This document shows, one piece after another, positions 10,626-40,032 of a stretch of 64,000 nucleotides of DNA (position 1 is its first letter; every line of letters starts with the position of its first letter). The position numbers and the translations under genes are program-made. Under the pieces are notes generated by a model that saw only the letters and a list, made by a program, of their open reading frames with translations, ran no database searches and was not told the DNA's origin. The DNA comes from an uncultured Clostridia bacterium (GTDB taxonomy: Bacteria > Bacillota > Clostridia > Lachnospirales > Lachnospiraceae): positions 11,216-75,215 of the forward strand of contig CAMYZE010000006.1 of NCBI GenBank assembly GCA_947303805.1. The letters run 5' to 3'.

Positions 10626-10664
10626 AATTAACATAGTGTAATATATATGTACAATAAATATGTC

Positions 10665-10760
10665 TTTCCGATATTGTTGATCTAAAAGCATAGCTCATGA
10701 TGACAATACGATAGGGGTGCATTGGAAACGAGGTACCCTCCCGCCTCCGAAAAGGAATGA
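10665..10760 (+). promoter_or_regulatory. Moco (molybdenum/tungsten cofactor) riboswitch candidate
   Basis: It lies in the 191-nt gap upstream of the FDH gene. It contains GGAAAC...CCCUCCCGCCUCCGAAAAGGA, which resembles the conserved CGCCUCC...GAAAGG 3' core of the Moco RNA motif, and a TATTGT/ACAATA stem upstream. Confidence 0.55.
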
Positions 10761-10816
10761 CATTAAATTAAAAAAAACAGGCACTTTCAAAAAGAAAGTC
10801 CCAAAGGAGGAAAAGA

Positions 10817-13729
10817 ATGAAATTAAAATTCAACGGCAGAGAATACGAAGTTGAAAAAGGCGTTAGAGTTTTTAAAGCTGCCAAAGATCTAGGAATTGAT
10901 ATTCCTAATTTTACCATTGATGAGAATTGTCATTTCAATGCTGCTTTTGATGAACCAGAAGATTATGAGTATTCATTAAAAGACATGAGCGTAGTTGAAA
11001 TTAATGGTAAGCTTGTTCGTTCTTATGAGGTAGAAGTAGAAGATGGAATGGACATCTGGACTGATAGTCCAAAATGTAAGGAAAGAAGAAAAGAAATTTT
11101 AGGAAAAGTAGTATCTTTCCATCCACTTGATTGTGTAAACTGTGTAAAGCTTGGAGAATGTAAGTTACAGAAATATTGTGAGATGTATGGTGTCAAAGAG
11201 GGAACTGATAAAGTTTCTTACATCAAGAGACCAAAAGACATGTCCAATAGATTTTATTTCCAAGAGTTTGACAAGTGTATCAGATGTGGTAGATGTGTAA
11301 AGGTATGTAAGGACAAAGTTGGGGTAGAAGCACTTGAGATGGTACAAGATGGTAAGATGAGATATGTTGTACCAAATTTAGATGCTAAACTTTGGAAAGA
11401 GAGAATTGGAAAAGATAGTCCATCTGGCAAAGAAAAAGTAATGGCCATAATAGATGGAAAGGTATCAATGGCAGACAGCACTCGTTGCGTATCTTGCGGT
11501 AACTGTGTATCTGTATGTCCAGTTGGTGCTATTATGCCAAAGGCACAAAATAACTTCAGAGAGTGGGAGACAAAGAAAGTTGTTACCACTTGTACATACT
11601 GTGGTGTTGGATGTCAAATCGAATACCTAGTAAGGGATGGAAAGATTGTTGACGCTAAGCCAGCAAATGGACCATCAAACGAAGCACTCCTTTGTGTTAA
11701 AGGAAAATTCGGTTATGACTTCATAAATCATAAGGATAGATTAAAACACCCTATGATTAGAAAGAATGGAAAACTTGTAGAATCTACTTGGGAAGAAGCT
11801 CTCGATCTTGCTGCAAGTAAGATTAAGGAAGCAAGAGATAACTTCGGACCAGATTCAGTTGCAGGTTTCTCATCAGCTAGAACAATAAATGAGGATAATT
11901 ATTTATTCCAAAAGATGCTTAGAGCAGCAGTTGGCACAAATAATGTTGACCACTGCGCCCGTCTCTGACATAGCTCAACAGTTGCAGGTTTAGCAACTAC
12001 ACTTGGTAGCGGTGCCATGACAAATACCGTAACAGGAATTAAGAAGGCAGATGTAATATTTGTAACAGGTTCAAATACTACAGAAGCTCACCCAGTAATG
12101 GGTATGTATGTGAGACAAGCTAAAAAAGCTGGAAAGAAACTCATAGTAGCTGACCCAGTAAGAATACCTCTTGCTGAGATAGCAGATATATATCTTCAAA
12201 TTACTCCAGGTACATCAGTAGCATTATCAAATGGTATGCTCAATGTTATCTTTGAAGAAGGACTTGAAGATAAAGAATACATTAAAGAACATACTGAGGG
12301 TATAGAAGAATTAAAAGCAATGGTTAAGAAATATACTCCAGAGTATGCAGGAAAAATATGTGGAGTAAATCCAGATGACATAAGAGCAGCTGCAAGAATG
12401 TATGCAAGCTCACACAAGTCATACATAGCATATGCTATGGGTATCACTCAACATATCAATGGTACTGATAACGTTATGAGTTTAAGTAACCTTGCTCTTT
12501 GCACAGGTAACTTTGGTCGTGAAGGTTGTGGTGTAAACCCTCTTCGTGGACAAAATAACGTTCAAGGCGCTTGTGATATGGGTGCTCTTCCTACAGATTA
12601 CCCAGCATATCAAAAAGTATTTAACCCAGAAGTTCAAGCTAAGTTTGAAGCAGCTTGGGGAGTAAAACTTAATCCAAATAAGGGACTTACAGTTACTAAG
12701 ACTATACCAGCTATACTTGAAGATAAGGTTAAAGTACTTTATGTAATGGGTGAGAATCCAGCTGTTTCAGATCCAGATTCTCATCACGTTGCACATGCTC
12801 TTGAGAAAGCATTCTTGATACAACAAGATATTTTCTTAAATGAAACTTCAGAATATGCAGATATAGTATTCCCAGTTAAAGCATTCGCTGAGAAAGATGG
12901 AACTTTCAGTAATACTGAGAGAAGAGTTCAAAGAGTAAGACAGTTGGCAGTTCCAAAAGGCGAGTCAAAAGATGACTGGTGGATCATAATGGAAATCATG
13001 AATAGACTTGGTTACAAGTGCCATTATGATAAAGCAGAAGATATATTCAATGAACTTAGAAAAGTTACACCATCTTATGCTGGTATGACTTATGCTAGAC
13101 TTGAAGGAAAAGGATTACACTGGCCATGTCCAACTGAGGATCATCCAGGAACTCCAATTCTTCATACAAATGGACCTATCAGAAATAAGGGTGTAGGACT
13201 TCTTAAAGCAATTGAGTGGATCGAATCTCCTGAGAGACAAGATAAGAAGTACCCATTCACACTCATTACAGCTCGTATCCTCTATCACTATCATACTAGA
13301 ACTATGACTGATAGAACTCGTGCCATCCACTTTACTGCTCCAAGAAACTGGGTAGAAGTAAATAAAGATGATGCTATGGAGTTAAAATTAAAAGATGGTG
13401 ATTGGTTGAAAGTTACATCTAAGAGAGGTTCAACTGAAGTTGAAGTAAGAGTTGTAGATACATTAGAACCAGGTGTTATGTGGATGCCATTCCACTATGC
13501 AGATGGTGCTAACAACTTATCTGATGCTGAGACACTTGATCCAGTATGTAGCATACCTGGATATAAGGTTATAGGTGTTAAGGTTGAGAAGGTAAGCGGA
13601 GGAGAATCTAAGAAGCTTACTGAAGAAGTTAACAACGAAGAAATTGCGTACTATGAAAATGAAGATCCATCAAGGATCCGTTATAAAGAAGCAGCTGCTG
13701 AGAAATTATTAGCAGGGAAAGGAGAATAA
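10817..13729 (+). CDS. fdhA: Selenocysteine-containing formate dehydrogenase alpha subunit with N-terminal Fe-S domains (970 aa, TGA at 11966..11968 read as Sec)
   Basis: Track ORFs 10817..11968 and 12017..13729 are in the same frame with no other stop between them. The junction reads [16 protein letters not shown], the FDH active-site Sec/Cys context. A molybdopterin-domain CTYCGVGC cluster motif and two CxxCxxCxxxCP motifs lie upstream. Confidence 0.9.
11977..12001 (+). promoter_or_regulatory. Bacterial SECIS hairpin
   Basis: The stem AGTTGC (11980-85) / GCAACT (11993-98) has an AGGTTTA loop containing GGUU. It begins 11 nt after the UGA. Confidence 0.7.
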
Positions 13730-13731
13730 CT

Positions 13732-15498
13732 ATGAGAGAAATTTATGGTGGTCAATTAGACGAGAATGTTAGAGTTGTCATTGATGGTCAAGTTGTTCTT
13801 TGCCCTGAGAACTCTACAATTTTAGAAGCAGCAAAGATGGCAAATATTGAAATTCCAACTCTTTGCTATTTAAAAGGTTTAACTCCAACTGGTGAGTGTG
13901 GTATGTGTGTAGTTGAAATCACATATCCAGATGGAAAGAAGAAGATAGGAAGATCTTGTCGTCTTAAAGCAAAAGACGGCATAGAGGTTGTAACTCATTC
14001 TGAAGAATTAACTAAGCTTCGTGAGAAAGCAATCAAAACTATACTTGATAAACACCCAAATGATTGTCTTACTTGCCAAAAGACAAATGGAAATTGTCAT
14101 TTGCAAGAGGTTACACACTTATTTGGTATCAATCCTGAAGAAAGAAAGGTGCCAAAGCGTACTCTTGATGAAACTAGTGTTGCATTTACTCGTGATATGA
14201 GTAAGTGTATCGCTTGTGGACGTTGTGTAACTGTATGTAATGATGTTCAAAAGATTAAGATCTATGAGATGTATACTGATCCAAAGACTGGAGACAGATA
14301 TCAAAGAGTAAAAGGCGGCAAGATGCTCAGTGATACGAATTGTATCAACTGCGGACAATGTGTAAAGGTATGTCCAGTTGCAGCTCTTACTGAGAAGGAT
14401 AGCATTAAGGAAGCAATTGATGCAATTGATGATCCAAATGTAACAATTGTATGGGAAATGGCACCAGCTATACAAAATACTTTAGGTGAAGAATTTGGAC
14501 TCCCTACAGGTTCTGATGTAACTAGAAAAATAGCTGCAGCCATGAAAGCTCTTGGAGGTTATGCTTATACAACTGATTTCTCAGCAGACTTAACCATCAT
14601 GGAAGAAGGAACAGAGTTTATAGATAGAGTTTCAAACGGCGGAGTCCTTCCTATGATGACATCATGCTGTCCTGGCTGGATAAGATACATGGAGTATAAC
14701 TATCCAGATCAACTTTCACATTTATCAACTTGTAAGTCACCACAACAGATGTTTGGAGCACTTGTTAAAAACTATCTTCCAAAGAAGATAGGCGTTGATG
14801 CTAAAAAGATTTGTCACATTTCTATCATGCCATGTACTGCTAAGAAATTTGAAAGAAGCAGAGAGGAGATGGGTGGTGATTATGGTAAGGATGTAGATAT
14901 AGTTCTTACTACAAGAGAGGCAGCAAAACTCTTTAAGTTTAAAGGAATTGATCTTGCTACTATTAAAGAAGAAGACTTTGACTCACTTATGGGTTGTGGA
15001 ACTGGTGCAGCAAGAATCTTCTCTACAACTGGAGGAGTTATGGAAGCAGCTCTTAGAACAGTTGTATGGAAACTTACAAATGGTAAGATAGATACAATTG
15101 ATTATGTAGCAGCTCGTGGATACAAGGGTGTTAAAGAAGCATCATTAAAGATTGGCGACTTAGAGGTTAAAGTAGCTGTAGTAAATGGTATAGGAAATGT
15201 TAAACCAGTTATGGATGATGTTCGTGCTGGAAAATCACCTTACCACTTCATAGAAGTTATGGCTTGCCCAGGCGGTTGCTTAAATGGAGGTGGTGCACCA
15301 CTTACATCTGAGCCATCACTTGTTGGTGTTAGAATGGATAAGACATATGAGTCTGATAAGAATAATAAGATTCGTAGATCTCATGAAAATCCAGAGATTC
15401 AAGCAATATATGCAGACTATTTGAAAGAGCCATGTGGACACATTTCACACCATATCTTACACACAACTTATACAGATAGAAGTAAAACAGTTAAATAG
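13732..15498 (+). CDS. hydA: [FeFe] hydrogenase, CpI-like multidomain (copy 1)
   Basis: The N-terminus carries [2Fe-2S] cysteines, followed by HPNDCLTCQ and two 4Fe-4S motifs. H-cluster motifs TSCCPGW, MPCTAKKFE and EVMACPGGCLNGGG are present, along with a small-subunit-like C-terminal tail. Confidence 0.9.
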   Translation: MREIYGGQLDENVRVVIDGQVVLCPENSTILEAAKMANIEIPTLCYLKGLTPTGECGMCVVEITYPDGKKKIGRSCRLKAKDGIEVVTHSEELTKLREKAIKTILDKHPNDCLTCQKTNGNCHLQEVTHLFGINPEERKVPKRTLDETSVAFTRDMSKCIACGRCVTVCNDVQKIKIYEMYTDPKTGDRYQRVKGGKMLSDTNCINCGQCVKVCPVAALTEKDSIKEAIDAIDDPNVTIVWEMAPAIQNTLGEEFGLPTGSDVTRKIAAAMKALGGYAYTTDFSADLTIMEEGTEFIDRVSNGGVLPMMTSCCPGWIRYMEYNYPDQLSHLSTCKSPQQMFGALVKNYLPKKIGVDAKKICHISIMPCTAKKFERSREEMGGDYGKDVDIVLTTREAAKLFKFKGIDLATIKEEDFDSLMGCGTGAARIFSTTGGVMEAALRTVVWKLTNGKIDTIDYVAARGYKGVKEASLKIGDLEVKVAVVNGIGNVKPVMDDVRAGKSPYHFIEVMACPGGCLNGGGAPLTSEPSLVGVRMDKTYESDKNNKIRRSHENPEIQAIYADYLKEPCGHISHHILHTTYTDRSKTVK

Positions 15499-15812: not shown

Positions 15813-17591
15813 ATGTACGAAGTTTATGGCGGACAACTAGATGAGAACATTAGAGTGATCATCGACGGACAAACTGTTTTTTGCCCACAAGGCAGCAGTA
15901 TCTTAGAGGCAGCAAAACTCGCAGGTATTGAAATCCCAACTCTTTGTTACTTAAAGGGATTAACTCCTACTGGAATGTGTGGAGTATGTGCAGTTGAAAT
16001 TGAAAATGAAGACGGCACAAGAAAAATTCGTAGAGCTTGTAGATATCGTGCTAAAGATGGCATGGTTATCTATACTAACTCTAAGAACATTGACAAGTAT
16101 CGTCAAGAGAGAATGGAGAAGCTCCTTGCTATCCACCCTCAAGATTGCTTAACTTGTCACAAATCAAATGGAAATTGTAAGTTCCAAAAAGTTGCAAATA
16201 ACTTTGCAGATCGTTACAATTTAACTGTTGAGTCAGTAAAAGTTCCAAAGAGAGGAACTGACGATTCAAGCCCAGCTTTCGTAAGAGAGATGGAGAAGTG
16301 TATTGCTTGTGGACGTTGTATCAATGTATGTAATGATGTACAAAAGATAAGAGTTTATGAGATGTACACAGATAAGTCAGGAGATAAGTACTGCAGAATT
16401 AAAGGCGGACACAAATTATCTGAGACTAGCTGTATTAATTGTGGACAATGTGTAAAAGTATGTCCAGTTGGAGCACTTACAGAGAAGAATGGTATCGTTG
16501 ATGCATTAAATGCTATAGATGATCCAAACTTAACAGTAGTATGGTCTATGGCACCAGCTATTCAAAATACTTTAGGTGAAGAGTTCGGTCTTCCTACAGG
16601 TACTGATGTAACTAGAAAGATAGCAGCTGCAATGAAGAGAGTTGGAGCTTATGCTTACACAACTGATTTCTCAGCAGACTTAACTATCATGGAAGAAGGG
16701 ACAGAGTTTATTGGTAGAGTAACAAATGGTGGAACATTACCAATGCTCACTTCATGCTGCCCAGGTTGGATAAGATACATGGAGTATAACTATCCAGATC
16801 AACTTGAGCACTTATCATCTTGCAAATCACCACAACAAATGTTTGGTGCACTTGTAAAGAATTATCTTCCAAAGAAGATAAATGTAGATGCTAAGAAGAT
16901 TTATCATATTTCTATCATGCCATGTACTGCAAAGAAATTTGAGTGTCAAAGACCAGAGATGGGCGGAGACTACGGAAAAGATGTTGATGTAGTTCTTACT
17001 ACAAGAGAAGTTGCTAAACTCTTTAAGATGAGAGGAATTGACCTTGCTACAATCGAGGAGCAAGACTTTGATTCACTTATGGGTTGTGGAACTGGTGCAG
17101 GAAGAATCTTCTCTACAACTGGTGGAGTTATGGAAGCAGCTCTTAGAACAGTTGTATGGAAACTTACAAATGGTAAGATTGATACTATTGATTATGAAGC
17201 AGCTCGTGGATATAAGGGTGTTAAAGAGGCAACTCTTAACATCAACGGTATGGACGTAAAAGTTGCTGTAGTAAATGGTATCGGAAATGTTAAACCAGTT
17301 ATGGATGATGTTCGTGCTGGAAAATCACCTTATCACTTCATAGAAGTTATGGCATGCCCAGGCGGATGCTTAAATGGTGGTGGTGCGCCACTTACATCTG
17401 AACCATCTATGATCGGTGTTCGTATGGACAAGACTTATGAGTCTGATAGAAATAATAAGATTAGAAGATCTCATGAGAACCCAGAGATAACTGCTATTTA
17501 TAAAGATTATCTTGAGGAGCCATGTGGACATATTTCACACCATATCTTACACACAACTTATACAGATAGAAGCAAGACTGTAAAACATTAA
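15813..17591 (+). CDS. hydA: [FeFe] hydrogenase, CpI-like multidomain (copy 2, paralog of 13732..15498)
   Basis: It has the same domain order and H-cluster motifs as copy 1, with long near-identical nucleotide stretches in the 3' two-thirds. Confidence 0.9.
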   Translation: MYEVYGGQLDENIRVIIDGQTVFCPQGSSILEAAKLAGIEIPTLCYLKGLTPTGMCGVCAVEIENEDGTRKIRRACRYRAKDGMVIYTNSKNIDKYRQERMEKLLAIHPQDCLTCHKSNGNCKFQKVANNFADRYNLTVESVKVPKRGTDDSSPAFVREMEKCIACGRCINVCNDVQKIRVYEMYTDKSGDKYCRIKGGHKLSETSCINCGQCVKVCPVGALTEKNGIVDALNAIDDPNLTVVWSMAPAIQNTLGEEFGLPTGTDVTRKIAAAMKRVGAYAYTTDFSADLTIMEEGTEFIGRVTNGGTLPMLTSCCPGWIRYMEYNYPDQLEHLSSCKSPQQMFGALVKNYLPKKINVDAKKIYHISIMPCTAKKFECQRPEMGGDYGKDVDVVLTTREVAKLFKMRGIDLATIEEQDFDSLMGCGTGAGRIFSTTGGVMEAALRTVVWKLTNGKIDTIDYEAARGYKGVKEATLNINGMDVKVAVVNGIGNVKPVMDDVRAGKSPYHFIEVMACPGGCLNGGGAPLTSEPSMIGVRMDKTYESDRNNKIRRSHENPEITAIYKDYLEEPCGHISHHILHTTYTDRSKTVKH

Positions 17592-19462: not shown

Positions 19463-19490
19463 TTGACAATTTTGTTTAAAGTGATAAAAT
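19463..19490 (+). promoter_or_regulatory. Promoter candidate for the mop operon
   Basis: TTGACA, a 16-nt spacer, then TGaTAAAAT (extended -10). Confidence 0.6.
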
Positions 19491-19504
19491 ATATATAATT
19501 GATT

Positions 19505-19669
19505 TAATGTTGCGAGCTACTTAAGCCCAATGGGTTTAAATAGCCAATGAGTGTAGATAGTAATGTTTGCGCTTGCCTTTTGCGAAGTAGCATTAATTGT
19601 TTTTTACATATAATTTTGAATAAAGCAACATTAGATGATTTATATATATATTTCATTTAATGTTTTTTT
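19505..19669 (+). promoter_or_regulatory. Structured leader with terminator (unassigned riboswitch-like element, copy A)
   Basis: The core is GCGAG-N27-CCAATGAGTGTA-N16-CTTGCCTTTTGCGAAG. The terminator is AACATTAGATGA/TCATTTAATGTT plus T5 at 19627..19669. The 5' segment TAATGTTGC is complementary to the terminator 5' arm. A paralogous element lies at 34244..34392. Confidence 0.6.
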
Positions 19670-19703
19670 ATTACATATTATTTATTTATAGGAGGAAATA
19701 ACT

Positions 19704-19913
19704 ATGAAATTAAGCGCTAGAAATCAATTTAAAGGAAAGGTTGTAGAGATTAAGGAAGGAGCAGTAAATGGGACTGTAAAAATCGACATCGGTGGTGGCA
19801 ATGTGATTAGTTCTGTAATTACTATGGCTTCAATTAAGGAATTAGGACTTGCAGTTGGTAAGGAAGCATATGCAGTAATTAAAGCATCTTCAGTTATGGT
19901 TGGAGTAGATTAA
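19704..19913 (+). CDS. mop: Molbindin (Mop, TOBE-domain molybdate/tungstate-binding protein)
   Basis: 69 aa beginning MKLSARNQFKGKV..., with VKASSVMV near the end. This is the classic Mop/TOBE sequence. Confidence 0.85.
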   Translation: MKLSARNQFKGKVVEIKEGAVNGTVKIDIGGGNVISSVITMASIKELGLAVGKEAYAVIKASSVMVGVD

Positions 19914-19948
19914 GCAATAATTGTAAGAATGAAAGGAAGGTTGTAGTA

Positions 19949-21091
19949 ATGGCTCTAAAAGATATACATCAAAGCGTTGTATCAAACGATAATATAGATG
20001 TATATTTTGATGTGAATGTTTCTGAAAATGAAAAAGAGAAAGATTTAAACACTAGTAAATATTTAAAAGAAATCAAAGAAAACAATAGTAGAAGCATAGT
20101 GATAGGATTTTTTATCGTTATGCTTCTTTTTTTTGTAATTCTAATATCTTTTAATGTCGGTAGATATGCAGTAAGTATTGATCAAGTTGTAAAAATATTA
20201 TTTAAAGATATTTTCCATTTTGAAAAGACCTGGGAAGATGTATATGAAACTATAGTTTGGAATGTGCGAATGCCAAGAATAATTGCCGCATTGCTTGTAG
20301 GTGCATCTCTTTCTGTGGCAGGAGCCACATACCAGGGTCTATTTAGAAACCCCATGGTGTCACCTGATATTTTAGGTGCTTCAGCAGGAGCAAGTGTAGG
20401 AGCTTGCCTTATGATGCTACTTAAACAAAATGGGGTTACAATTCAAATAGCTGCATTTGCATTTGGCTTACTTGCTGTGTCACTCACTTATAGTTTGAGT
20501 AAAGCAATTAGCAAAAGTGCAGATATGGTATTAATGCTTGTGTTATGCGGTCTTATAGTATCAACATTATTTCAGGCATTCGTATCTATAATCAAGTATG
20601 TTGCTGATACTGATTTATTGCTTCCTGAAATTACATATTGGCTTATGGGAAGTATTGCAAAAGTCACCTATAAAGATCTAATGTTCTTTATGATACCATT
20701 TATTTTTGGAGTTGTGCCCATAATGATGATAAGGTGGCAGTTGAATGTCATGTCATTTGGAGAAGATGAAGCAAAAGCCATGGGTGTCAATGTAAGTTTG
20801 ATAAGACTTATTTGTATTATATGTTCAACTCTTTTAACTGCTGGAGTTGTGTCGATTGCAGGAACAGTGGGATGGGTTGGACTTATGATACCTCACTTGG
20901 TTAGATTTATGGTGGGACCTAATAATGGAAAACTTCTTCCAATATCATTTCTAACTGGATCGCTTTTTATGCTTATCGTAGATGATGTCTGTAGGTCAGC
21001 ACTTGCATATGAGATACCATTAGGTGTATTAACTTCACTTATTGGTGCACCATTTTTTATATTGATTTTGTATAAACATAAAGGTAATTAA
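19949..21091 (+). CDS. FecCD/BtuC-family ABC permease (system 1) with about 60-aa N-terminal extension
   Basis: It carries the motifs PRIIAALLVGASLSVAGATYQGLFRNPMVSPDILG and IPLGVLTSLIGAPFF. Confidence 0.8.
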   Translation: MALKDIHQSVVSNDNIDVYFDVNVSENEKEKDLNTSKYLKEIKENNSRSIVIGFFIVMLLFFVILISFNVGRYAVSIDQVVKILFKDIFHFEKTWEDVYETIVWNVRMPRIIAALLVGASLSVAGATYQGLFRNPMVSPDILGASAGASVGACLMMLLKQNGVTIQIAAFAFGLLAVSLTYSLSKAISKSADMVLMLVLCGLIVSTLFQAFVSIIKYVADTDLLLPEITYWLMGSIAKVTYKDLMFFMIPFIFGVVPIMMIRWQLNVMSFGEDEAKAMGVNVSLIRLICIICSTLLTAGVVSIAGTVGWVGLMIPHLVRFMVGPNNGKLLPISFLTGSLFMLIVDDVCRSALAYEIPLGVLTSLIGAPFFILILYKHKGN

Positions 21092-21871
21092 ATGGAATTA
21101 AGAATTGAAAATGGAATATGTGGTTATAAAAATGTTCCTATTATTAAAAATATAAGTATTGGATTTAAGCAAGGAGAAATAGTTGGTATTCTCGGGCCAA
21201 ATGGTGTTGGTAAAACGACAATGTTTAGATCTATACTCGGATTTCTGCCACTTATAAAAGGCAACATAACACTTGACAATGTAAATAAGAGTGACATTAG
21301 TGTAAAAGAGTTTTCAAAAAACGTTGCTTATGTCCCACAAAGTAATAATCCGCCATTTCCATTTGCAGTGCCTGATGTAGTGGTGATGGGTAGGATAAGT
21401 AGATTGAAAAGATTTGAAAGACCTGGAATAAAAGACTATTTAGTTGCCTATAAAGCTCTTGAAGTATTATCTGTATCTTACTTAAGAGATAAGATATTTA
21501 CAGAAATATCTGGTGGTGAAAGGCAAATGGTTTTAATTGCAAGAGCATTGGCACAAAGTCCAAAACTTTTAGTTATGGATGAACCGACAGCAAATCTCGA
21601 TTTGGGAAATCAAATTAGAGTATTGTCCACAATCAGGCATTTGTCGAGTATGGGATTGGGTGTACTTATGACAACGCATAGTCCAGATCATGCTTTTCTA
21701 TGTTGCGACAGAGTGATTCTCATAACTAAAAACAAAGAAGTGGTAACTGGAACAGTAGATGAAATAGTTACTGAAGAAAATTTAAAGAGAGCATATAATG
21801 TTGATGTAAAAATTACAGAGATTAAAGGTAGCGACGGAAAAGCAATTAAAACATGTGTACCATTAATTTAA
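21092..21871 (+). CDS. ABC transporter ATPase (FecE/BtuD-like, system 1)
   Basis: Walker A GPNGVGKTT, signature SGGERQ and Walker B LLVMDEPT are all present. Confidence 0.85.
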   Translation: MELRIENGICGYKNVPIIKNISIGFKQGEIVGILGPNGVGKTTMFRSILGFLPLIKGNITLDNVNKSDISVKEFSKNVAYVPQSNNPPFPFAVPDVVVMGRISRLKRFERPGIKDYLVAYKALEVLSVSYLRDKIFTEISGGERQMVLIARALAQSPKLLVMDEPTANLDLGNQIRVLSTIRHLSSMGLGVLMTTHSPDHAFLCCDRVILITKNKEVVTGTVDEIVTEENLKRAYNVDVKITEIKGSDGKAIKTCVPLI

Positions 21872-21918
21872 AATAATCGAAATATAATTAAAGGAGGCTG
21901 TGGAAACACAGAATAATA

Positions 21919-23013
21919 ATGAGTAATAAAGTTTTAAATAAGATCAAAATGCTAATTTTTTCAGTGCTTACAGTTATTATAATATTGGTGACAGCTTGTA
22001 GTTCAAATAAATCTGTTGATAGTTCGAGTGCGAGCAAGGATGCTGTCACAGTTAATGAAAAGAAAACAAGAAAGATAGTAGACATGAAAGGGGTAGAAGT
22101 TGAGATACCTGAAAAAGTAAATACATTTGTAGAAAGTTGGTTTGCTCACAATGCTGTAGATGTGATGTTGAGAAATGCAGAGGGAATGCTTGTGACTTGT
22201 TGCGATGAACCATCATATCAATGGATGTATAAGGTGTGTGATAATTTAAGTAAGGCTCAGTTTGCAAAATTTTCAGATTCTATGAATCTAGAAGAGATTA
22301 TTTCTTTAAACCCAGATGTTGTATTTGGTTCAAATGAAAAATATAGAGATATGTTTACAAATGTAGGTATACCTTTTGTAAATTGTACGTTTACAAATTA
22401 TGATGAGATGAAGAGGTCTATAAAACTTACTGCAGAAGTTTTTGGCGGTGATGCAGTCGATAAAGCGAATAGATATATTTCTTATCTTGATACAAAGCTA
22501 AGTGAAGTCAAAAAGGTAACTGATACTGTGCCTGAAGATAAAAAAACTACAATTGTGCATGGTAGTTCAGTCTACAAGATGGGTGTTGATGGCAGAAACA
22601 CTATTATAAATGATTGGATAGGATATAGCGGAGGCATCAATGCAGCTGCTAATGATATAGATGGTAATTTACAGACTATGACTATGGAACAATTACTTCT
22701 TTGGGATCCAGATGTAATTATTACAGGTGATACGGAGGAAGAAGTCGATAAAATTATGTCAGATGCTTCATGGCAAAACTTAAAGGCCGTGAAAGAAGGC
22801 AGAGTATATGCCAACCCGAAAGGTATATTTGCATGGGATAGGTATGGAGTAGAGGAGGCACTACAATTTCAATGGTGTTCACAAAAATTATACCCAGAAC
22901 TATTTAAAGATTTTGACATAAAAGCTGAGCTTAAAAAATTCTATAAGGACTTCCTAGATTATGAATTAAGTGATGAAGATGCTGAAAAAATCCTAAGGCA
23001 CCAAAATCCATAA
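21919..23013 (+). CDS. Periplasmic-binding-protein (class 8, FecB/BtuF-like) lipoprotein (system 1)
   Basis: It has a signal peptide with lipobox LVTAC, the LNPDVVFG motif, and LLWDPDVIITGD typical of the siderophore/cobalamin-type SBP fold. Confidence 0.7.
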   Translation: MSNKVLNKIKMLIFSVLTVIIILVTACSSNKSVDSSSASKDAVTVNEKKTRKIVDMKGVEVEIPEKVNTFVESWFAHNAVDVMLRNAEGMLVTCCDEPSYQWMYKVCDNLSKAQFAKFSDSMNLEEIISLNPDVVFGSNEKYRDMFTNVGIPFVNCTFTNYDEMKRSIKLTAEVFGGDAVDKANRYISYLDTKLSEVKKVTDTVPEDKKTTIVHGSSVYKMGVDGRNTIINDWIGYSGGINAAANDIDGNLQTMTMEQLLLWDPDVIITGDTEEEVDKIMSDASWQNLKAVKEGRVYANPKGIFAWDRYGVEEALQFQWCSQKLYPELFKDFDIKAELKKFYKDFLDYELSDEDAEKILRHQNP

Positions 23014-23058: not shown

Positions 23059-23086
23059 TTGTAAAATCATTTAAAAGTGATATAAT
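23059..23086 (+). promoter_or_regulatory. Promoter candidate upstream of the fdhD leader
   Basis: TTGTAA, a 16-nt spacer, then TGaTATAAT (extended -10). Confidence 0.55.
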
Positions 23087-23094
23087 TAATGTAA

Positions 23095-23203
23095 TTAAAT
23101 ATAAGAAATATCCCCCCCCTGACGCTTAAGAAGTATCTGAGGCGAAAGATATGGTAGAGAATTTTTAGGAGCAATGACCATATCTTGTGATATGGTCTTT
23201 TTT
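23095..23203 (+). promoter_or_regulatory. Leader with C8 tract, alternative pairings and an intrinsic terminator (attenuator/riboswitch-like)
   Basis: The terminator is GACCATATC-ttgt-GATATGGTC plus T6 (23176..23203). AAGATATGGT (23146-55) can pair with the terminator 5' arm as an antiterminator. ATATC (23108-12) can sequester GATAT. Confidence 0.5.
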
Positions 23204-23209
23204 ATAATT

Positions 23210-24004
23210 ATGAAAATTACAAATCTTTACAAAGAAAAAGAAAATACAGAAGTTAGGGATTCTATAATCCATAAGGAAAATGGAGAGAAAGAAAACTTAC
23301 CATATGAGCTTTTAAATGAGCACTTAATTAAAGTGTATATCAATGAGAGAGAGGCTATGAGTTTAGTTTGTACCGGAACTAATCTTGTTGAATTAGTTGT
23401 TGGAAGAATAGTAAGTGAAGGTATCGTAAAAAATATTGACGATATTGAGAGCATATATATTTGTGAATATGGCCTTAGAGCAAAACTGATGATTAAAAAT
23501 TATGTACACGATGCGTGTAAACTTAAGGCATCAGATGATGTTGCAAGTTGCTGCCAAGATAATAGGACATATCTGAAGAGTGAAACAAAACTTGAGAAAG
23601 TAAATAAAATTATGGAAGTAAGTGATAAAGATGTGTTTAATCTTGCAGAGGCATTTAATGAAGATTCAAAGATTCACAAGATGACTTCTGGCACACATGC
23701 TGCATATCTATATTATGATGGCAAGGTAGTAAAATCATTTGAAGATATAGGAAGACATAATGCTCTTGATAAGATCATAGGATTTATATATATGAATAAT
23801 TATGTGCCTGAGAAATGCATAGTCTTTACTACAGGCAGAGTTCCGGTTGATATGGCAAGAAAGGCAATCTATTCAAAACTAGGATGTCTTGTATCAAAAG
23901 CAGTGCCAACTTCAGATGCAGTTGATTTAGCAAAGGAATATAATTTAAATCTTATTTGCAGAGCATGGAGAGATTCTTATCAAGTTTTTAACGAAGCACA
24001 TTAA
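23210..24004 (+). CDS. fdhD: Formate dehydrogenase accessory sulfurtransferase FdhD
   Basis: SGTHAAYLY and GRHNALDKIIG motifs are present. The start is placed at the ATG after the terminator hairpin. The alternative in-frame start at 23174 lies inside that hairpin, with an AGGAG only 2 nt upstream. Confidence 0.8.
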   Translation: MKITNLYKEKENTEVRDSIIHKENGEKENLPYELLNEHLIKVYINEREAMSLVCTGTNLVELVVGRIVSEGIVKNIDDIESIYICEYGLRAKLMIKNYVHDACKLKASDDVASCCQDNRTYLKSETKLEKVNKIMEVSDKDVFNLAEAFNEDSKIHKMTSGTHAAYLYYDGKVVKSFEDIGRHNALDKIIGFIYMNNYVPEKCIVFTTGRVPVDMARKAIYSKLGCLVSKAVPTSDAVDLAKEYNLNLICRAWRDSYQVFNEAH

Positions 24005-33439: not shown

Positions 33440-33468
33440 TTGATAAATATTTAATAATATACTATAAT
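33440..33468 (+). promoter_or_regulatory. Promoter candidate for rubrerythrin
   Basis: TTGATA, a 17-nt spacer, then TATAAT. Confidence 0.6.
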
Positions 33469-33518
33469 ATATGACAGTAAACAAAATTGAAATTAACAAA
33501 ATAAAAAGGAGAGTTAAT

Positions 33519-34058
33519 ATGTCAAAATACGCAGGAACAAAAACTGAGAAAAACTTAATGGAAGCATTTGCTGGTGAGTCTCAAGCTAGAAATAAGTATA
33601 CTTACTTTGCAAGTGTTGCTAGAAAAGAAGGTTATGAGCAGATTGCTGCAATCTTTGAAGAGGCAGCTGCAAATGAAAAAGAGCATGCTAAACTTTGGTT
33701 CAAAGAGTTAGGCGGCATTGGCGATACTGCTACAAACCTTACTCATGCTGCAGAAGGTGAGCATGAAGAACACACTGCTATGTATCCAAGAATGGCTAAG
33801 GAAGCAGAAGAAGAGGGCTTCAAGGAAGTTGCAGCTATGTTTACAATGGTTGGCAAGATTGAAGAGAAACACGAAGAGAGATATTTAAAAGTTTTAAAGA
33901 ACTTAAAAGAAGATTTAGTATTTAAAGCAAGCGATGGACAAATGATGTGGATTTGTAGAAATTGTGGTCACATCCATGTTGGTGCAAATGCTCCTGAACT
34001 TTGTCCAGTATGCAAACATCCAAAGAGCTTCTTTGAGAGAAGAGCAATGAATTACTAA
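33519..34058 (+). CDS. rbr: Rubrerythrin
   Basis: It begins MSKYAGTKTEKNLMEAFAGESQARNKY and has a C-terminal rubredoxin-like CRNCGH...CPVCKHP. The start is taken at the internal ATG preceded by AAGGAG. Confidence 0.85.
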   Translation: MSKYAGTKTEKNLMEAFAGESQARNKYTYFASVARKEGYEQIAAIFEEAAANEKEHAKLWFKELGGIGDTATNLTHAAEGEHEEHTAMYPRMAKEAEEEGFKEVAAMFTMVGKIEEKHEERYLKVLKNLKEDLVFKASDGQMMWICRNCGHIHVGANAPELCPVCKHPKSFFERRAMNY

Positions 34059-34079: not shown

Positions 34080-34214
34080 ATGGTTTATAAGTGTAAGATT
34101 TGCGGACACAAGTATGATGAAGCAGCAGAAGGTGTAAAGTTTGCTGATTTACCAGATGATTGGAAGTGCCCAATCTGTGGTGTTGGCAAAGATATGTTTG
34201 AGCCAGCTGAGTAA
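34080..34214 (+). CDS. Rubredoxin (44 aa)
   Basis: My own translation is [44 protein letters not shown]. An AGGAGG RBS precedes it. It is below the ORF-track cutoff. Confidence 0.85.
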
Positions 34215-34243
34215 TTAATCACAATAAGTAAAAAAAAATCATT

Positions 34244-34392
34244 AGTGTTAGCGAGTTATTATTGACCAAGTGCCAATTTTAACCAATGAGTGTAAGTGGC
34301 GACATTTATACTTGCCTTTTGCGAAGCTACATTGATAACTTTGTAAATTAAGCATTAGATGATTTATATTGATAAATTATTTAATGCTTTTT
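34244..34392 (+). promoter_or_regulatory. Structured leader with terminator (unassigned riboswitch-like element, copy B)
   Basis: It has the same core and the same spacings as 19505..19669: GCGAG 34251-55, CCAATGAGTGTA 34283-94 and CTTGCCTTTTGCGAAG 34311-26. The terminator is AAGCATTAGATGA/TTATTTAATGCTT at 34350..34392. Confidence 0.6.
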
Positions 34393-34418
34393 AAATTATA
34401 AAAAAATTTGGAGGAAAT

Positions 34419-35441
34419 ATGTTTAAAAAGAAAGTATTAGCATTAATAGCAGTACTTGCAATGGTACTCGGATTAGTAGCTTGTGGAAACAAGACTACAA
34501 CAACAGCTGCAGTAGAAACAACAGCAGTTGAGACTACAGCAGCAAAGGAAGAAGAGAAGAAAAGTGTAAATCTTGAAATCTTACTTGAGAGAGATGATTC
34601 AATGATTAACACATATTCACTTCTCGCAGTAAATGATGCAGCTCCATTTGTAGATGCAAATGACAAAGCTGTAACTGATGTAAAGTTAAATACAGCAGGT
34701 GCAGATGCACTCATCAATTGGATGCTTGGTGAAGGTGAAGATCTTGCCAAGAATTATGGCTATGACAAATACGGTGAGTATTTATTCTATTTACTTGACA
34801 ATGCACCAAAGTCATCTGCAGAGATTCCTGCAGCAACTGAAGAGACAAAGACAATCAGAATGTCAACCACTACTTCAGTAAATGACTCAGGACTTCTTGG
34901 GTATTTACTTCCACAATTTGAGAGTAAGTATGGTTATAAGGTTGAAGTATTTTCAGCTGGTACAGGAAAATCAATTGCAAATGCAAAAGCAGGAAATGCT
35001 GATGTAATTTTAGTTCATGCTAAGGCTCAAGAAGAAAAGTTTATTGAAGATGGTTTTGCTAGAAAAGTTGATGGATTTGATAAAGAGAGATTATCTTATA
35101 TGTATAATTTCTTTGTACTCTGCGGACCAAAAGAGGATCCAGCAAATGTTAAGGGTGCTGCTTCAGTTCTTGATGCATTTAAAGCAATAGCTGATGGCAA
35201 GTTCTTATTTGTATCTCGTGGAGATAAATCAGGAACTCACACTAAAGAGTTATCTCTTTGGCCAAAGGACCTCGGAATCACTGATGATCCAACAACATTT
35301 GAGAAGTATCAAGATTGGTATATCTCTTCAAATGCAGGTATGGGTGTATGCTTAACTCAAGCTGCAGAAAGAGGAGCATATATTTTATCTGACAAAGCTA
35401 CTTTCCTTACATTTAAGGCAAATGGCGGAGTTATAAAATAG
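34419..35441 (+). CDS. tupA: Tungstate/molybdate ABC transporter substrate-binding lipoprotein (TupA-like, apparently circularly permuted)
   Basis: It has lipobox LVACGN, the anion-binding motif MSTTTSVNDSGLL, and SRGDKSGTHTKE. The segment LEILLERDDSMINTYSLLAVND that is normally C-terminal in TupA sits near the N-terminus here. Confidence 0.7.
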   Translation: MFKKKVLALIAVLAMVLGLVACGNKTTTTAAVETTAVETTAAKEEEKKSVNLEILLERDDSMINTYSLLAVNDAAPFVDANDKAVTDVKLNTAGADALINWMLGEGEDLAKNYGYDKYGEYLFYLLDNAPKSSAEIPAATEETKTIRMSTTTSVNDSGLLGYLLPQFESKYGYKVEVFSAGTGKSIANAKAGNADVILVHAKAQEEKFIEDGFARKVDGFDKERLSYMYNFFVLCGPKEDPANVKGAASVLDAFKAIADGKFLFVSRGDKSGTHTKELSLWPKDLGITDDPTTFEKYQDWYISSNAGMGVCLTQAAERGAYILSDKATFLTFKANGGVIK

Positions 35442-35463: not shown

Positions 35464-36141
35464 ATGAAAATATTTAATGAAGCTATAAATTTAATAATTA
35501 ATCATGATAAAACTCTCCTAGACATATTAGTTGTGACATTTAAAATGTCAATATCAAGTTCTATAATTTCATTATTAATTGGAGTACCAATAGGCATTAT
35601 TTATGGTTATAAAAAATATACCATGAATAAGTTTTTAATAATTATTAACCGCACGCTCATGGGTATGCCACCTGTGGTGTGCGGTCTTTTATGTTATTTA
35701 TTATTTTCCGGAGTTGGGCCTTTAAGACATCTAAAACTTTTATATACTATAAGAGGAATGATAATTGCCCAAGTTTTGCTTATAACACCGATAGTTATAG
35801 GAACTATGGAGCCATTTATAAAAAAGCTTTATCCTGAGATGAAAGATACAATGGATGGTATAAAGATTAGTGAGACTAAAAAATTATTTTTACTTATAAA
35901 TGAGAGTAAGTACGAGATAATTTCAGTATATCTAATTGCATTTTCAAGAGCAATAGCTGAAGTCGGTGCAGTCTCTATGGTTGGTGGCGCTATAATATTT
36001 AAGACCAATGTAATGACTACGGCAATTATGAATTATACTAACATGGGGGATTTTAATATGGCTATGGCACTGGGAATTGTATTGCTGCTTATATCGCTTA
36101 TAGTAAATGTCATAGCAAGTATTATGCAGTACGAGAGATGA
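35464..36141 (+). CDS. tupB: Tungstate ABC transporter permease (TupB-like)
   Basis: 225 aa with 5-6 TM helices and an ABC type-I permease EAA-like loop (AFSRAIAEVGAVSMVGG). Confidence 0.7.
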   Translation: MKIFNEAINLIINHDKTLLDILVVTFKMSISSSIISLLIGVPIGIIYGYKKYTMNKFLIIINRTLMGMPPVVCGLLCYLLFSGVGPLRHLKLLYTIRGMIIAQVLLITPIVIGTMEPFIKKLYPEMKDTMDGIKISETKKLFLLINESKYEIISVYLIAFSRAIAEVGAVSMVGGAIIFKTNVMTTAIMNYTNMGDFNMAMALGIVLLLISLIVNVIASIMQYER

Positions 36142-36710
36142 TTCAATTTGGGAAAATAAAAAAATCATATAATGGACAAGTAGTTTTAGATATAGATGAC
36201 TTTTCTATTGAAAACGGAAAAATCTATGCCATTACAGGAACAAATGGATCTGGAAAAAGCACTTTAGCTAAAATTATTGCTGGAATTATTAAAGATGATA
36301 GTAATCGCACTATTGACACAGGCTTAAACGTCGGGTATGTGCCACAGAAACCATATGTATTTGACTTGACTTTAGAAAAGAACATAATGATCAGCGGCAA
36401 TGACAAAAAGAAATGTGAAAAATTAATTAATGATTTTGGAATAGGATATTTAAAAGGTAAAAGATCCAAAGGTTTTTCTGGAGGAGAACAACAAAAACTA
36501 GCACTAGCAAGATTTATGATGATGGATTATGATCTTGCAATTCTTGATGAACCAACCTCTGCTATGGATGAAAAGTCACAAGAGATAGCTGAAGAGATAA
36601 TTTTAAATTACGCAAAAGGGAAGACAATGATTGTAATTACTCATGACAAGAGTCAAATTAATAAAATAGCCGATAAAATTATAAATATGAATGGTGGGAA
36701 GATAATTTAA
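36138..36710 (+). CDS. tupC: Short ABC transporter ATPase (TupC-like, 190 aa)
   Basis: Walker A GTNGSGKST, signature FSGGEQQK and Walker B ILDEPTS are present. It has overlapping start and stop codons with neighbours. Confidence 0.75.
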   Translation: MIQFGKIKKSYNGQVVLDIDDFSIENGKIYAITGTNGSGKSTLAKIIAGIIKDDSNRTIDTGLNVGYVPQKPYVFDLTLEKNIMISGNDKKKCEKLINDFGIGYLKGKRSKGFSGGEQQKLALARFMMMDYDLAILDEPTSAMDEKSQEIAEEIILNYAKGKTMIVITHDKSQINKIADKIINMNGGKII

Positions 36711-37939
36711 TGGAACTTCTTAAAGTTGATAGTCTTGATGAGGCTAAATTAAAACTATATAACGAATATATTGCAAGTGGCAAAGGACTTGAGATAGAAG
36801 AAAAGCATGTGCTTGATGCACTTGATTATATTTTGGCAGAAAAAATTGTAAGCAGTGTGGCAGTACCAGAGTTTGATAGGTCAGTAGTCGATGGATATGC
36901 TGTTATAGCTAGTGATACGCAGGGAGCAAATGATTCTATACCAACATTTTTAAAAGTGGTTGGTGAGAGCAAGATGGGCGAAGTCTGCGGCATTGAGCTA
37001 AAAAGTGGTGAATGTGTATATGTACCAACAGGCAGCATGATACCTAAAAATAGTAATGCCTGCGTGATGGTAGAACATACAGAAAGTATAACTGATGATA
37101 AAGTTGCTATATATGAAGCGGTTGCAGATGGAAAGAGTGTGGTAAAAAAAGGGGATGATATAAAAGAAGGCTCTGAAATATTTACTGAAGGAAGAAAACT
37201 TTCTGCCGCAGACGTTGGATTTTTATCATCTATAGGAATATATAAAGTTAAAGTATATAAAAAGTGGAGTATAACAATTATATCTACTGGAGATGAACTG
37301 GTAGATGAAAAATCAGAATATAAATTTGGAAAGATAAGAGATATAAATACTAATTTGTTGTCGGCACTTTCAATAAAATACGGATTTAAAATTATAAATA
37401 AGTATTTAGTGAAAGACAATGCTGATATTTTAGAAAAAACTCTTCAAGAATCAATGTCTAATAGCGATGTAGTAGTAATATCAGGCGGAAGCTCTAAAGG
37501 CAAGAAGGATGCTAGTAGTTTAGTGATAGATAAAGTGACTTCTTCAGGAGTTTTGACTCATGGTATAGCTGTAAAACCAGGGAAGCCGACAATCACTGGA
37601 TATGATAAAAATACTAATACTGTAGTAGTGGGACTTCCGGGGCATCCAGTTGCATCAGCTGTATTATTTAAACTTATAGTATGTGGTTTATATGATATGA
37701 TAACTAATTCGCAAAATAGAGATTTGGTTTGTGAAGGCATAATGAGTGAAAATATGCCTGCTTCACCAGGTAGAATGACATTTCAACTTGTAAAAATTGA
37801 TAAAGATTTTAATGTTACACCAATATTTGGAAGATCAGGGCTTATTCGTACACTTTCGGAAGCCGATGGCTATATCATTTTAGAAACTGATCAGGAAGGC
37901 ATCCGAAAGGGCGACAAAATCAAAGTCTATTACTTGTAG
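36710..37939 (+). CDS. moeA: Molybdopterin molybdenum/tungsten transferase MoeA
   Basis: 409 aa with FDRSVVDGYAV, STGDEL, ISGGSSKG and GLPGHPVAS motifs. Confidence 0.85.
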   Translation: MELLKVDSLDEAKLKLYNEYIASGKGLEIEEKHVLDALDYILAEKIVSSVAVPEFDRSVVDGYAVIASDTQGANDSIPTFLKVVGESKMGEVCGIELKSGECVYVPTGSMIPKNSNACVMVEHTESITDDKVAIYEAVADGKSVVKKGDDIKEGSEIFTEGRKLSAADVGFLSSIGIYKVKVYKKWSITIISTGDELVDEKSEYKFGKIRDINTNLLSALSIKYGFKIINKYLVKDNADILEKTLQESMSNSDVVVISGGSSKGKKDASSLVIDKVTSSGVLTHGIAVKPGKPTITGYDKNTNTVVVGLPGHPVASAVLFKLIVCGLYDMITNSQNRDLVCEGIMSENMPASPGRMTFQLVKIDKDFNVTPIFGRSGLIRTLSEADGYIILETDQEGIRKGDKIKVYYL

Positions 37940-38004: not shown

Positions 38005-39906
38005 ATGGGAAAACGAAATTTATATTTAAAAACAATATCAGTAGAGGAAGCATACGACAAGTATTACTCTGCATTAAATGAAAAAGGAATACTTGCTAAA
38101 TTTGTTGAAGAAGTACCAACAAGCGAGGCATTAGGTAGAGTTACATCTGAAGCAATATTCGCGAAGTGCAACTCGCCACTTTTTAATGCTGCTGCCATGG
38201 ATGGAATTTGTGTTGAGAGTATAAAGACCAAAAATGCTAGTGAAGAGAGTCCTGTTATTTTAAAGTCAGGAGTTGATTATAAAATAGTTGACACAGGCGA
38301 CTCTATAAAACCACCATTTGATGCTGTAGTGATGGCTGAAGATGTAATAGAGATTGATGATGAGACAATAAAAATTATTGCTCCAGTTTCTGGTTGGGAA
38401 AACATAAGACCTATAGGAGAAGACATAGTTGCTGGTGAGATGATACTTGAAAGCAATCACAAAATCAAACCTATAGATATAGGTGCTTTAATAGCAGGAG
38501 GCATTTTAAAAATCAAGTGCCATAAAAAACTTTCAGTTGGGATAACACCTACAGGCGATGAAATTATAAATCCTAAAGATAACCCAAAAGAAGGAGATAT
38601 AATTGATTCAAATTCTTATATGATTAAAGCTTTGGTCGATGACAACGGGGGTATTGGCAAGAGATATGATATTGTAAAAGACGACTATGACAAGATTAAG
38701 GCTCAACTACAAAAATCTATTGCAGAAAATGATATTACTATTATTAATGCAGGATCTTCTGCAGGCACAGAAGATTATTCTGTTCATATACTAAAAGAAC
38801 TCGGTGAAGTAATAGTGCATGGTGTTTCTATGAAGCCAGGTAAACCTGTTATACTCGCTATAGTAGACGGTAAGCCTGTTGTTGGACTTCCAGGCTATCC
38901 ACTAAGTGCATATCTTGCATTTGATTTATATATAAAACCACTATTATCGCATGAGAAAGTAAGTCAGGATGAAATTGATGCAGTTGTATCAAAAAGACTT
39001 GTATCTTCATTAAAATACAGAGAGTATGTGAGAGTTAAAGTTGGAAAGGTTGATAATAAATATATAGCGTCGCCACTCAATCGTGGAGCTGCATCACAGA
39101 TGAGTATGGTTAGAGCTGACGGCATACTTATAATTCCACAAAATAGTGAAGGAATTGAAGCAGGAGAAGTTGCAAAAGTTAAACTTATAAAAAATAAAAA
39201 GACTCTTGACACTACGCTTGTGTCGATTGGTTCACATGATGTGCTTATGGATATAGTTGCAGATATCATGGCAAACGATTATAATGATGTAACTTTGTCA
39301 TCTACTCATGTAGGCTCTATGGGTGGACTTATGGCACTAAAGAGAGGAGAGACTATAATAGCACCTACACATTTACTTGATGAAAATAATGGTAAGTACA
39401 ATGTGGATATTATTAAAGAGATATTTGGAGAAGGTAAAGTTTCTCTAATTAAAGGATTTGATAGGATACAAGGTATAATGGTTAAAAAAGGAAATCCTTT
39501 AAGTATTAAAGGCATAGAAGATTTACCAAAGTATAAATTTGTAAATAGGCAGAGAGGTGCTGGGACAAGAGTTTTACTTGACTATAAGTTAAAGACACTG
39601 GGGATTGACCCAAAATCTATAGATGGTTATGATAAAGAGGTTGCAACTCATATGGCTGTGGCTGCAAGTGTAGCAAGTCCTTACATAGATTGTGGGCTTG
39701 GAGTTAAATCGGCTGCTGATAGTATGGGCCTTGACTTTATAGAGGTAGGCATAGAAGAGTATGATTTTGCGATTCTCACAAAGAATCTAGAAGATGAAAA
39801 AGTAAAGAAGTTTATTGAAGTGATTAAATGTGATAAACTACATAAAAAACTTGATGATCTTGGTGGTTATGGATACAGTAACCTTGGTAAAATAGTAAAT
39901 ATTTAA
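38005..39906 (+). CDS. moeA: MoeA fused to a C-terminal periplasmic-binding-protein-like (molybdate/tungstate-binding-type) domain
   Basis: The N-terminal 400 aa carry MoeA motifs (AAMDGICV, PTGDEI, NAGSSAGTEDY, GLPGYPLSA). The C-terminal about 230 aa (SIGSHD...GTRVLLD...) resemble a PBP/LysR-substrate fold. Confidence 0.75.
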   Translation: MGKRNLYLKTISVEEAYDKYYSALNEKGILAKFVEEVPTSEALGRVTSEAIFAKCNSPLFNAAAMDGICVESIKTKNASEESPVILKSGVDYKIVDTGDSIKPPFDAVVMAEDVIEIDDETIKIIAPVSGWENIRPIGEDIVAGEMILESNHKIKPIDIGALIAGGILKIKCHKKLSVGITPTGDEIINPKDNPKEGDIIDSNSYMIKALVDDNGGIGKRYDIVKDDYDKIKAQLQKSIAENDITIINAGSSAGTEDYSVHILKELGEVIVHGVSMKPGKPVILAIVDGKPVVGLPGYPLSAYLAFDLYIKPLLSHEKVSQDEIDAVVSKRLVSSLKYREYVRVKVGKVDNKYIASPLNRGAASQMSMVRADGILIIPQNSEGIEAGEVAKVKLIKNKKTLDTTLVSIGSHDVLMDIVADIMANDYNDVTLSSTHVGSMGGLMALKRGETIIAPTHLLDENNGKYNVDIIKEIFGEGKVSLIKGFDRIQGIMVKKGNPLSIKGIEDLPKYKFVNRQRGAGTRVLLDYKLKTLGIDPKSIDGYDKEVATHMAVAASVASPYIDCGLGVKSAADSMGLDFIEVGIEEYDFAILTKNLEDEKVKKFIEVIKCDKLHKKLDDLGGYGYSNLGKIVNI

Positions 39907-40003: not shown

Positions 40004-40032
40004 ATAGGGGGTTTTGACCCCCTATCTTTTTT
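40004..40032 (+). terminator. Rho-independent terminator of the tup-moeA operon
   Basis: ATAGGGGG-ttttga-CCCCCTAT followed by C and T6. A third arm, CCCCCTAT at 39995-40002, offers an alternative hairpin. Confidence 0.7.

Follow-up and report, generated by a model that had tools for sequence, protein, structure and literature searches.

Which signal controls the tungstate-uptake genes at this locus, and from which transcripts does the structured leader in front of them work? In the window (the whole 64,000-nucleotide stretch of DNA analyzed), the first-pass annotation had placed one copy of a leader, here leader B, between a rubredoxin gene and tupA, in front of a tightly packed five-gene operon, tupABC-moeA-moeA, ending at a terminator. 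The same leader was said to precede a second, separate Mo/W operon, while the FDH operon carried a Moco-type element and fdhD yet another leader. These were read as three different cis-regulatory solutions which sense different signals, for example free oxyanion versus finished cofactor. The layout of genes and leaders was reproduced in every one of these points by folding, gene calls and model searches, as described below. The reading as three solutions held only in part.

Leaders A and B and the operons they precede

Leader B was found at 34241-34392, between the stop codon of rubredoxin at 34214 and the start of tupA at 34419. Folding gave a 96-nt aptamer (34241-34336), followed by an intrinsic terminator (34350-34392) with an 18-bp AT-rich stem, an AUUG loop and a U run at 34388-34392. 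The aptamer is closed by P1, which pairs 34241-34252 with 34326-34336. Within it, a J1/2 of GA leads to P2 (34255-34283), a J2/4 of CAAU leads to P4 (34288-34313) with its GCGA loop, and P5, formed by GC at 34314-34315 with GC at 34321-34322, is followed by a J5/1 of GAA (34323-34325). Leaders A and B, their operons, the rubrerythrin-rubredoxin unit and the FDH element all lie on the + strand.

The gene calls agreed with the five-gene operon behind leader B. It starts with a TupA-like tungstate-binding lipoprotein (34419-35441; Pfam PBP_like_2) behind the RBS GGAGG at 34410-34414, continues with a TupB-like ABC permease (35464-36141), a TupC-like ABC ATPase (36138-36710) and MoeA (36710-37939), and ends with a MoeA-PBP_like fusion (38005-39906; NF011068 at 720 bits) and the closing terminator at 40004-40032. 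An identical gene order, tupABC-moeA-moeA(PBP fusion), was observed in genome G011. The best NCBIfam match of the TupA-like protein is tung_bind_TupA at 132.6 bits, which is below the 400-bit cut-off. The match covers only residues 142-335 (profile positions 13-192 of 266); about 140 extra residues are present at the N-terminus, and the C-terminal part of the profile is absent.

Leader A is located at 19504-19672, with the aptamer at 19504-19596 and the terminator at 19619-19672. It has its own promoter at 19463-19490 (TTGACA-16-TGnTAAAAT, an extended -10 with 11 of 12 matches). The operon under it (19704-23013) encodes mop (TOBE, 19704-19913), a FecCD permease, an ABC ATPase and a Peripla_BP_2 binding protein. 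In a blastn comparison within the window, leader B was 68% identical to leader A over 128 nt (19541-19668, E=3e-9), and the alignment contains three long identical blocks, CCAAUGAGUGUA, CUUGCCUUUUGCGAAG and CAUUAGAUGAUUUAUAU. Both leaders also have the same shape, a P1-closed three-way junction with two hairpins and a 2-bp mini-hairpin, then an AT-rich terminator. The fold energies of the two leaders were well below those of shuffled sequences, with z-scores of -4.2 and -5.4.

Two covariance models were used for searches, R1 built from the leader pair A and B, and R2 built from 38 relatives, all of them variants with the changed core described below. Leader B scored 114.6 bits with R1 and 76.7 bits with R2, and leader A scored 78.6 bits with R2. 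Each model matched exactly two sites in the whole 1.9-Mb genome, namely leaders A and B, which makes a regulon of two operons in this genome by both searches.

An Rfam search of the window returned RF01055, the Moco/Tuco riboswitch, at 10654-10773 (54.2 bits) as the sole family; leaders A and B and the fdhD leader matched nothing at E<=10. This canonical, P3-lacking element has a GAAA loop and its receptor, and is located upstream of the FDH genes. The FDH catalytic subunit (10817-13729) is split by an in-frame TGA at 11966-11968 into ORFs 10817-11968 and 12017-13729 of the same frame, with the Pfam Molybdopterin domain running on over the TGA gap. The split gene very probably encodes a selenocysteine FDH, and behind it lie two [FeFe]-hydrogenase genes (13732-15498 and 15813-17591) in an HDCR-like layout. 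The fdhD leader consists of a promoter at 23059-23086 (TTGTAA-16-TGaTATAAT) and a terminator at 23176-23203, and between 23059 and 23211 a C8 run and alternative AUAUC/GAUAU pairings were observed. The fdhD start is probably the ATG at 23211 rather than the listed 23174, since the latter would put the terminator inside the ORF.

Relation to the Moco/Tuco riboswitch class

Neither leader A nor leader B matched RF01055 at E<=10, in a 300-nt search or genome-wide, and both thus fall short of its curated gathering threshold of 36 bits. The same was true of the GC-rich variants in other genomes: 0 of the 20 tested reached the gathering score, and six further ones were unlisted at E<=10. The architecture, nevertheless, is that of the family. 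Position by position, leader B and RF01055 without P3 are alike in P1, J1/2 GA, P2, J2/4 C-R-W-U, an 11-bp P4 with a GNRA loop, a 2-bp P5 and a three-nucleotide J5/1. A closing P1 followed by P2, an optional P3, P4 and a short P5 was obtained from the folds, from RNAalifold and pair counts over 38 sequences, and from the correspondence of columns with the RF01055 alignments.

Among the conserved nucleotides, GA and C-R-W-U are kept, whereas J5/1 is GAA instead of AAA and P4 has GAG:CUU instead of GGG:CCU, a compensatory change by which the second P4 pair becomes A-U, not G-C. Both changed positions (pair 2 of P4 and nucleotide 1 of J5/1) are among the most conserved of the family, and their change could alter the binding pocket. 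In the variants of this genus, one P1 pair is also flipped, and P1 is UAGC/GCUA rather than CUCC/GGAG. The P4 loops are GCGA in leader B, GUAA in leader A and GCAA or GCGA in the relatives, all of the GNRA type and all without the receptor. This agrees with the description by Regulski et al. (2008; PMC2408646), in which a GAAA loop on P4 goes with an 11-nt receptor in P2 and other loops occur without it. Two candidate differences were dropped: J2/4 (CCAAU), because alignment with canonical members shows the same C-R-W-U junction, and P5 GC:GC, because canonical members carry CC:GG, GC:GC or UC:GA.

The models linked the two groups from the side of the variant. R2, which contains variants only, was run on 400 Clostridia genomes sampled across the class. 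Each of the 14 sites that it matched is also matched by RF01055 (39-77 bits), and no true variant was found in this sample outside the window's own genome. Within the genus, R1 gave nine strong matches and two weak ones (L007 and L008), and the weak pair are RF01055 matches at 53.5 and 61.6 bits. L007 combines a canonical P1 (CUCCGAG...GGAG) with the variant core, CCAAUGAG[P4]CUUGCC...UUGCGAAGG.

Intermediate forms were collected by a metagenome pattern scan in which three core positions were left free, giving at least 82 distinct validated elements. At least 54 had GGG:CCU with A as the first nucleotide of J5/1, at least 13 had GGG:CCU with G, at least 14 had GAG:CUU with G, and at least one had GGG:CUU with A, while GAG:CUU with A was not seen among the matches listed. 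RF01055 scores drop along this series, from 30-52 bits for the receptor-less forms with A to 33-46 bits for the intermediates with G, and the full variant is unlisted; five of the six tested intermediates with GGG:CCU and GAA still reach the gathering score. The variant is thus one end of a continuous series and not sharply set apart, which looks more like compensated drift than the rise of a discrete new class.

Along the series, the A-U pair in P4 was found only together with the G in J5/1 (14 of 14 among the matches listed). This one-way coupling suggests, from the sequences, a tertiary contact between J5/1 and P4, which is thereby a prediction for a structure; a literature search found no solved structure of the Moco/Tuco class. 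A GAAA loop accompanied J5/1 A in 26 of 54 elements and J5/1 G in none of 27 (L155-L274, among the matches listed). In the receptor-less forms, P2 carries a conserved GACCCnCGnGGCC hairpin that could serve for docking instead.

Among 185,579 species genomes, a pattern scan yielded at least 118 loci, at least 38 of them scoring with R1, and among the matches listed nearly all came from MAGs of rumen or gut Clostridia. A MAFFT alignment of 38 distinct relatives had 93.9% of its cells paired, compared with 72.4% in shuffles. The covariation score was 0.629 against 0.211 in shuffles, a value that none of 500 shuffles reached, and slid registers gave 0.09-0.15. Compensatory double changes occurred in 18 of the 26 pairs. 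Part of the invariance of the GAG/CUU, GC/GC and GAAG columns (alignment A5) stems from the collection pattern; the covariation seen in P1, in P2 and in the remainder of P4 is independent of that pattern.

The gene contexts were also those of the family, with the variant upstream of genes for Mo/W transport, cofactor biosynthesis or cofactor-dependent enzymes. Within the genus, five species have it before tupABC(-moeA-moeA), in each case directly behind rubredoxin, and it is found as well before mop-FecCD and before a 338-aa MoCF-domain gene with mop. Canonical RF01055 elements of the genus precede FDH in four species and moeA in one. In GC-rich relatives from rumen Clostridia, the variant stands before a TAT-signal ferredoxin and a 732-aa AOR-family tungsten enzyme, and in other GC-rich relatives before a DMSOR-family oxidoreductase with a Fer4_11 partner. 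No variant contains P3, and the TupA-like and AOR contexts are those of the P3-lacking ('Tuco') subtype.

Locus L058 has both forms, a variant at 3355-3438 (-) before the ferredoxin-AOR pair and a P3-containing RF01055 element at 4992-5130 (+) before modA. This arrangement fits the split of P3 and no-P3 elements between Mo and W described in PMC2408646. The two elements of L058 are divergent and lie within 1.6 kb of each other, with a MobB-like gene between them. At L012 (G010:C79), the genus leader upstream of tupA has no terminator and the aptamer nearly abuts the RBS, and control there would be translational or absent.

The closest known form is the receptor-less, GCAA-loop subtype of the P3-lacking 'Tuco/WCo' type of RF01055 (PMC2408646), which is similar to leader B in its association with tungstate transport, moeA and tungsten enzymes and in its terminator-type platforms. 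In E. limosum, Tuco riboswitches are found upstream of tupABC, fetABC1/2, wor1 and focA (PMC11725836). As here, tupABC and FecCD-type ABC importers are under a P3-lacking cofactor riboswitch in that organism, and transcriptional and translational control are mixed by operon. The E. limosum elements are ordinary RF01055 matches, whereas leaders A and B have the variant core; also unlike in E. limosum, tupABC is joined here in one operon with two moeA genes, behind rubredoxin and without an evident promoter. Importers with FecCD and Peripla_BP_2 components recur under this riboswitch class in Clostridia that are not related to each other, at 19949-23013 of the window (with mop), in L023 and as E. 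limosum fetABC (PMC11725836). They are called iron transporters elsewhere and may import W/Mo oxyanions or a pterin compound.

No Rfam family besides RF01055 was found near any examined locus, and a literature search for a described Moco variant with this core returned none. A second candidate RNA tied to Mo-cofactor genes, the Moco-II RNA motif, is a small deltaproteobacterial candidate near Moco-related genes, from a different phylum and with a structure that is not known to be related. Leader B is placed in the RF01055 lineage by the shared architecture, the intermediates and the matches of R1 and R2, a direct RF01055 score being absent. The two leaders represent a variant within a known riboswitch class that is unannotated and that Rfam does not see.

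Predicted switching and ligand

The features above, together with the alternative pairings of the transcript, make it quite probable that leaders A and B are a diverged Moco/Tuco subtype acting as a transcription-termination OFF switch. Finished cofactor, if plentiful, would bind the three-way-junction aptamer and lock P1. Given the tungsten-related genes under control, the tungsten form would be the most likely ligand. A locked P1 would let the 18-bp terminator form, and transcription would stop before tupA. When the cofactor is scarce, the 5' strand of P1 would instead pair with the 5' arm of the terminator as an antiterminator, and RNA polymerase would read on into tupABC-moeA-moeA. We infer from sequence and folding what the ligand is, which way switching runs in vivo and where the transcripts come from.

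In leader B, the P1 5' strand and the bases at 34236-34240 together complement the 5' arm of the terminator (34350-34367). When the transcript was folded up to the terminator loop, the P1 5' strand paired with the terminator 5' arm over 14 pairs. The same alternative pairing, of 9-18 pairs, was observed in six of eight leaders of the genus, whose terminator sequences differ. In the full-length minimum-energy fold, P1 plus terminator wins even without ligand, and switching would therefore depend on co-transcriptional kinetics.

Some relatives have a different platform, in which the terminator 5' arm is J5/1 plus the P1 3' strand (GCGAAGGAAC...GUUCCUUCGC-UUUUU). It was found in the L041 group, L018, L052 and L047, all before DMSOR-family operons, and also in L089 and L054; every example with identified downstream genes stands before DMSOR-family enzymes. 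A locked P1 would prevent termination in these relatives, and the platform thus reads as ON. Both the OFF and the ON readings come from minimum-energy folds only. By them, the aptamer lineage would act as an OFF switch on genes of uptake and maturation, and as an ON switch on at least some operons of cofactor-dependent enzymes. Such opposite polarity at uptake genes and at genes of cofactor-dependent enzymes fits a finished-cofactor signal, and the ligand is likely the finished W/Mo cofactor. For the canonical FDH element, the minimum-energy fold of 10654-10825 pairs the P1 5' strand UCUUUCC with the RBS AAAGGAGG, which suggests a translational ON switch, opposite to leaders A and B.

Of the three cis-regulatory solutions proposed earlier, leaders A and B and the FDH element belong to one aptamer lineage, and the separate standing of the fdhD leader is retained, as that leader is unrelated. 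Nothing here requires a different ligand such as free oxyanion; the output logic differs instead. Leaders A and B and the FDH element appear to share ancestry and probably also the class of ligand.

A shared fold could still carry a changed ligand. The substitutions in the core (P4 G-C to A-U, J5/1 A to G and loss of the GAAA loop and receptor) would then re-tune the pocket and leave two separate sensors in one cell, a reading we consider unlikely. What the variant would sense might then be one metal form of the cofactor (W as opposed to Mo), one pterin form and not another (bis-pyranopterin versus MGD precursors), or some tungstate-dependent chemistry. Canonical and variant elements do coexist in genomes G000, G005 and G006, and lie within a few kb of each other in L058 and L039. 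The division of labour in the genus is clean, canonical elements at FDH and variants at uptake and handling genes, and the conserved position of the changed nucleotides and the strict pairing of P4 A-U with J5/1 G would suit a re-tuned pocket as well. On the other hand, the intermediates run without a break and most still score as RF01055, and in E. limosum tupABC, the FecCD-type importer, AOR and moeA are also under canonical P3-lacking elements (PMC11725836). Moreover, the ON/OFF polarity by gene class is already explained by a finished cofactor. It is accordingly improbable that the variant core is a separate specificity class within the Moco/Tuco fold, with the FDH element and the uptake-operon variant reading different cofactor forms (W versus Mo, or states of pterin maturation); if true, small rumen Clostridia would have built two cofactor sensors from one scaffold. 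The failure of RF01055 to match leaders A and B would also suit a protein-dependent or ligand-independent attenuator, or the remnant of a decaying riboswitch. This is very improbable given the strong covariation across about 40 sequences, the conserved junction nucleotides and alternative pairings, and the consistent placement at Mo/W genes in many species.

Source of the transcripts

Upstream of leader B, rubredoxin (44 aa, 34080-34214) ends 26 nt before P1 and follows rubrerythrin (33519-34058), whose start codon ATG at 33519 lies behind the RBS AAGGAGAG. The listed ORF start at 33471 was rejected, because it lies inside the transcribed leader of the promoter and the RBS-backed start is at 33519. 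A sigma-70-like promoter of this unit was located at 33440-33468 (TTGATA-17-TATAAT, 11 of 12 matches). By this consensus match only, transcripts reaching leader B probably start there.

That there is no convincing promoter between rubredoxin and leader B, and that the leader may act on read-through transcripts, had been stated in the first-pass annotation, and both statements gained support. Between the rubredoxin stop at 34214 and P1 at 34241, a promoter scan gave none above chance; the scan as a whole counted 35 promoter-like sites against 30.7 expected. The adjacency of rubredoxin, leader and tupA is kept in five species with spacers of only 12-35 nt between stop codon and P1, and this favours action on read-through transcripts. 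Leader B could alternatively be an independent unit with its own promoter within the rubredoxin coding sequence, which we regard as possible and rather doubtful. Such an element can stand at a 5' end, as the strong promoter of leader A demonstrates, and at the rubredoxin 3' end weak -35/-10-like pairs such as TTTGAG-17-CACAAT can be drawn by eye. A conserved promoter in that 3' end was looked for across the five species and none was found, however, and the short spacers leave no intergenic room. The scan remained at the chance level, and the antiterminator uses nucleotides 34236-34240, which lie upstream of P1. Co-transcription from the upstream unit is the simpler reading, because no promoter rises above chance, no promoter pair is conserved and the antiterminator needs bases upstream of P1. 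Most likely, then, leader B works on transcripts begun at the rubrerythrin-rubredoxin promoter, and its terminator would in that case also end the upstream unit.

Placed directly after rubredoxin, the riboswitch is a neat case of an internal attenuator, which would end one transcription unit and gate the next. The picture of the locus is corrected in that the FDH, tungstate-uptake and mop/ABC operons carry one aptamer lineage, predicted to work with opposite output logic. Beyond this locus, a whole branch of the family in rumen and gut Clostridia escapes the Rfam Moco model, and cofactor riboswitches upstream of tungsten enzymes and transporters are under-counted in annotations of these bacteria.
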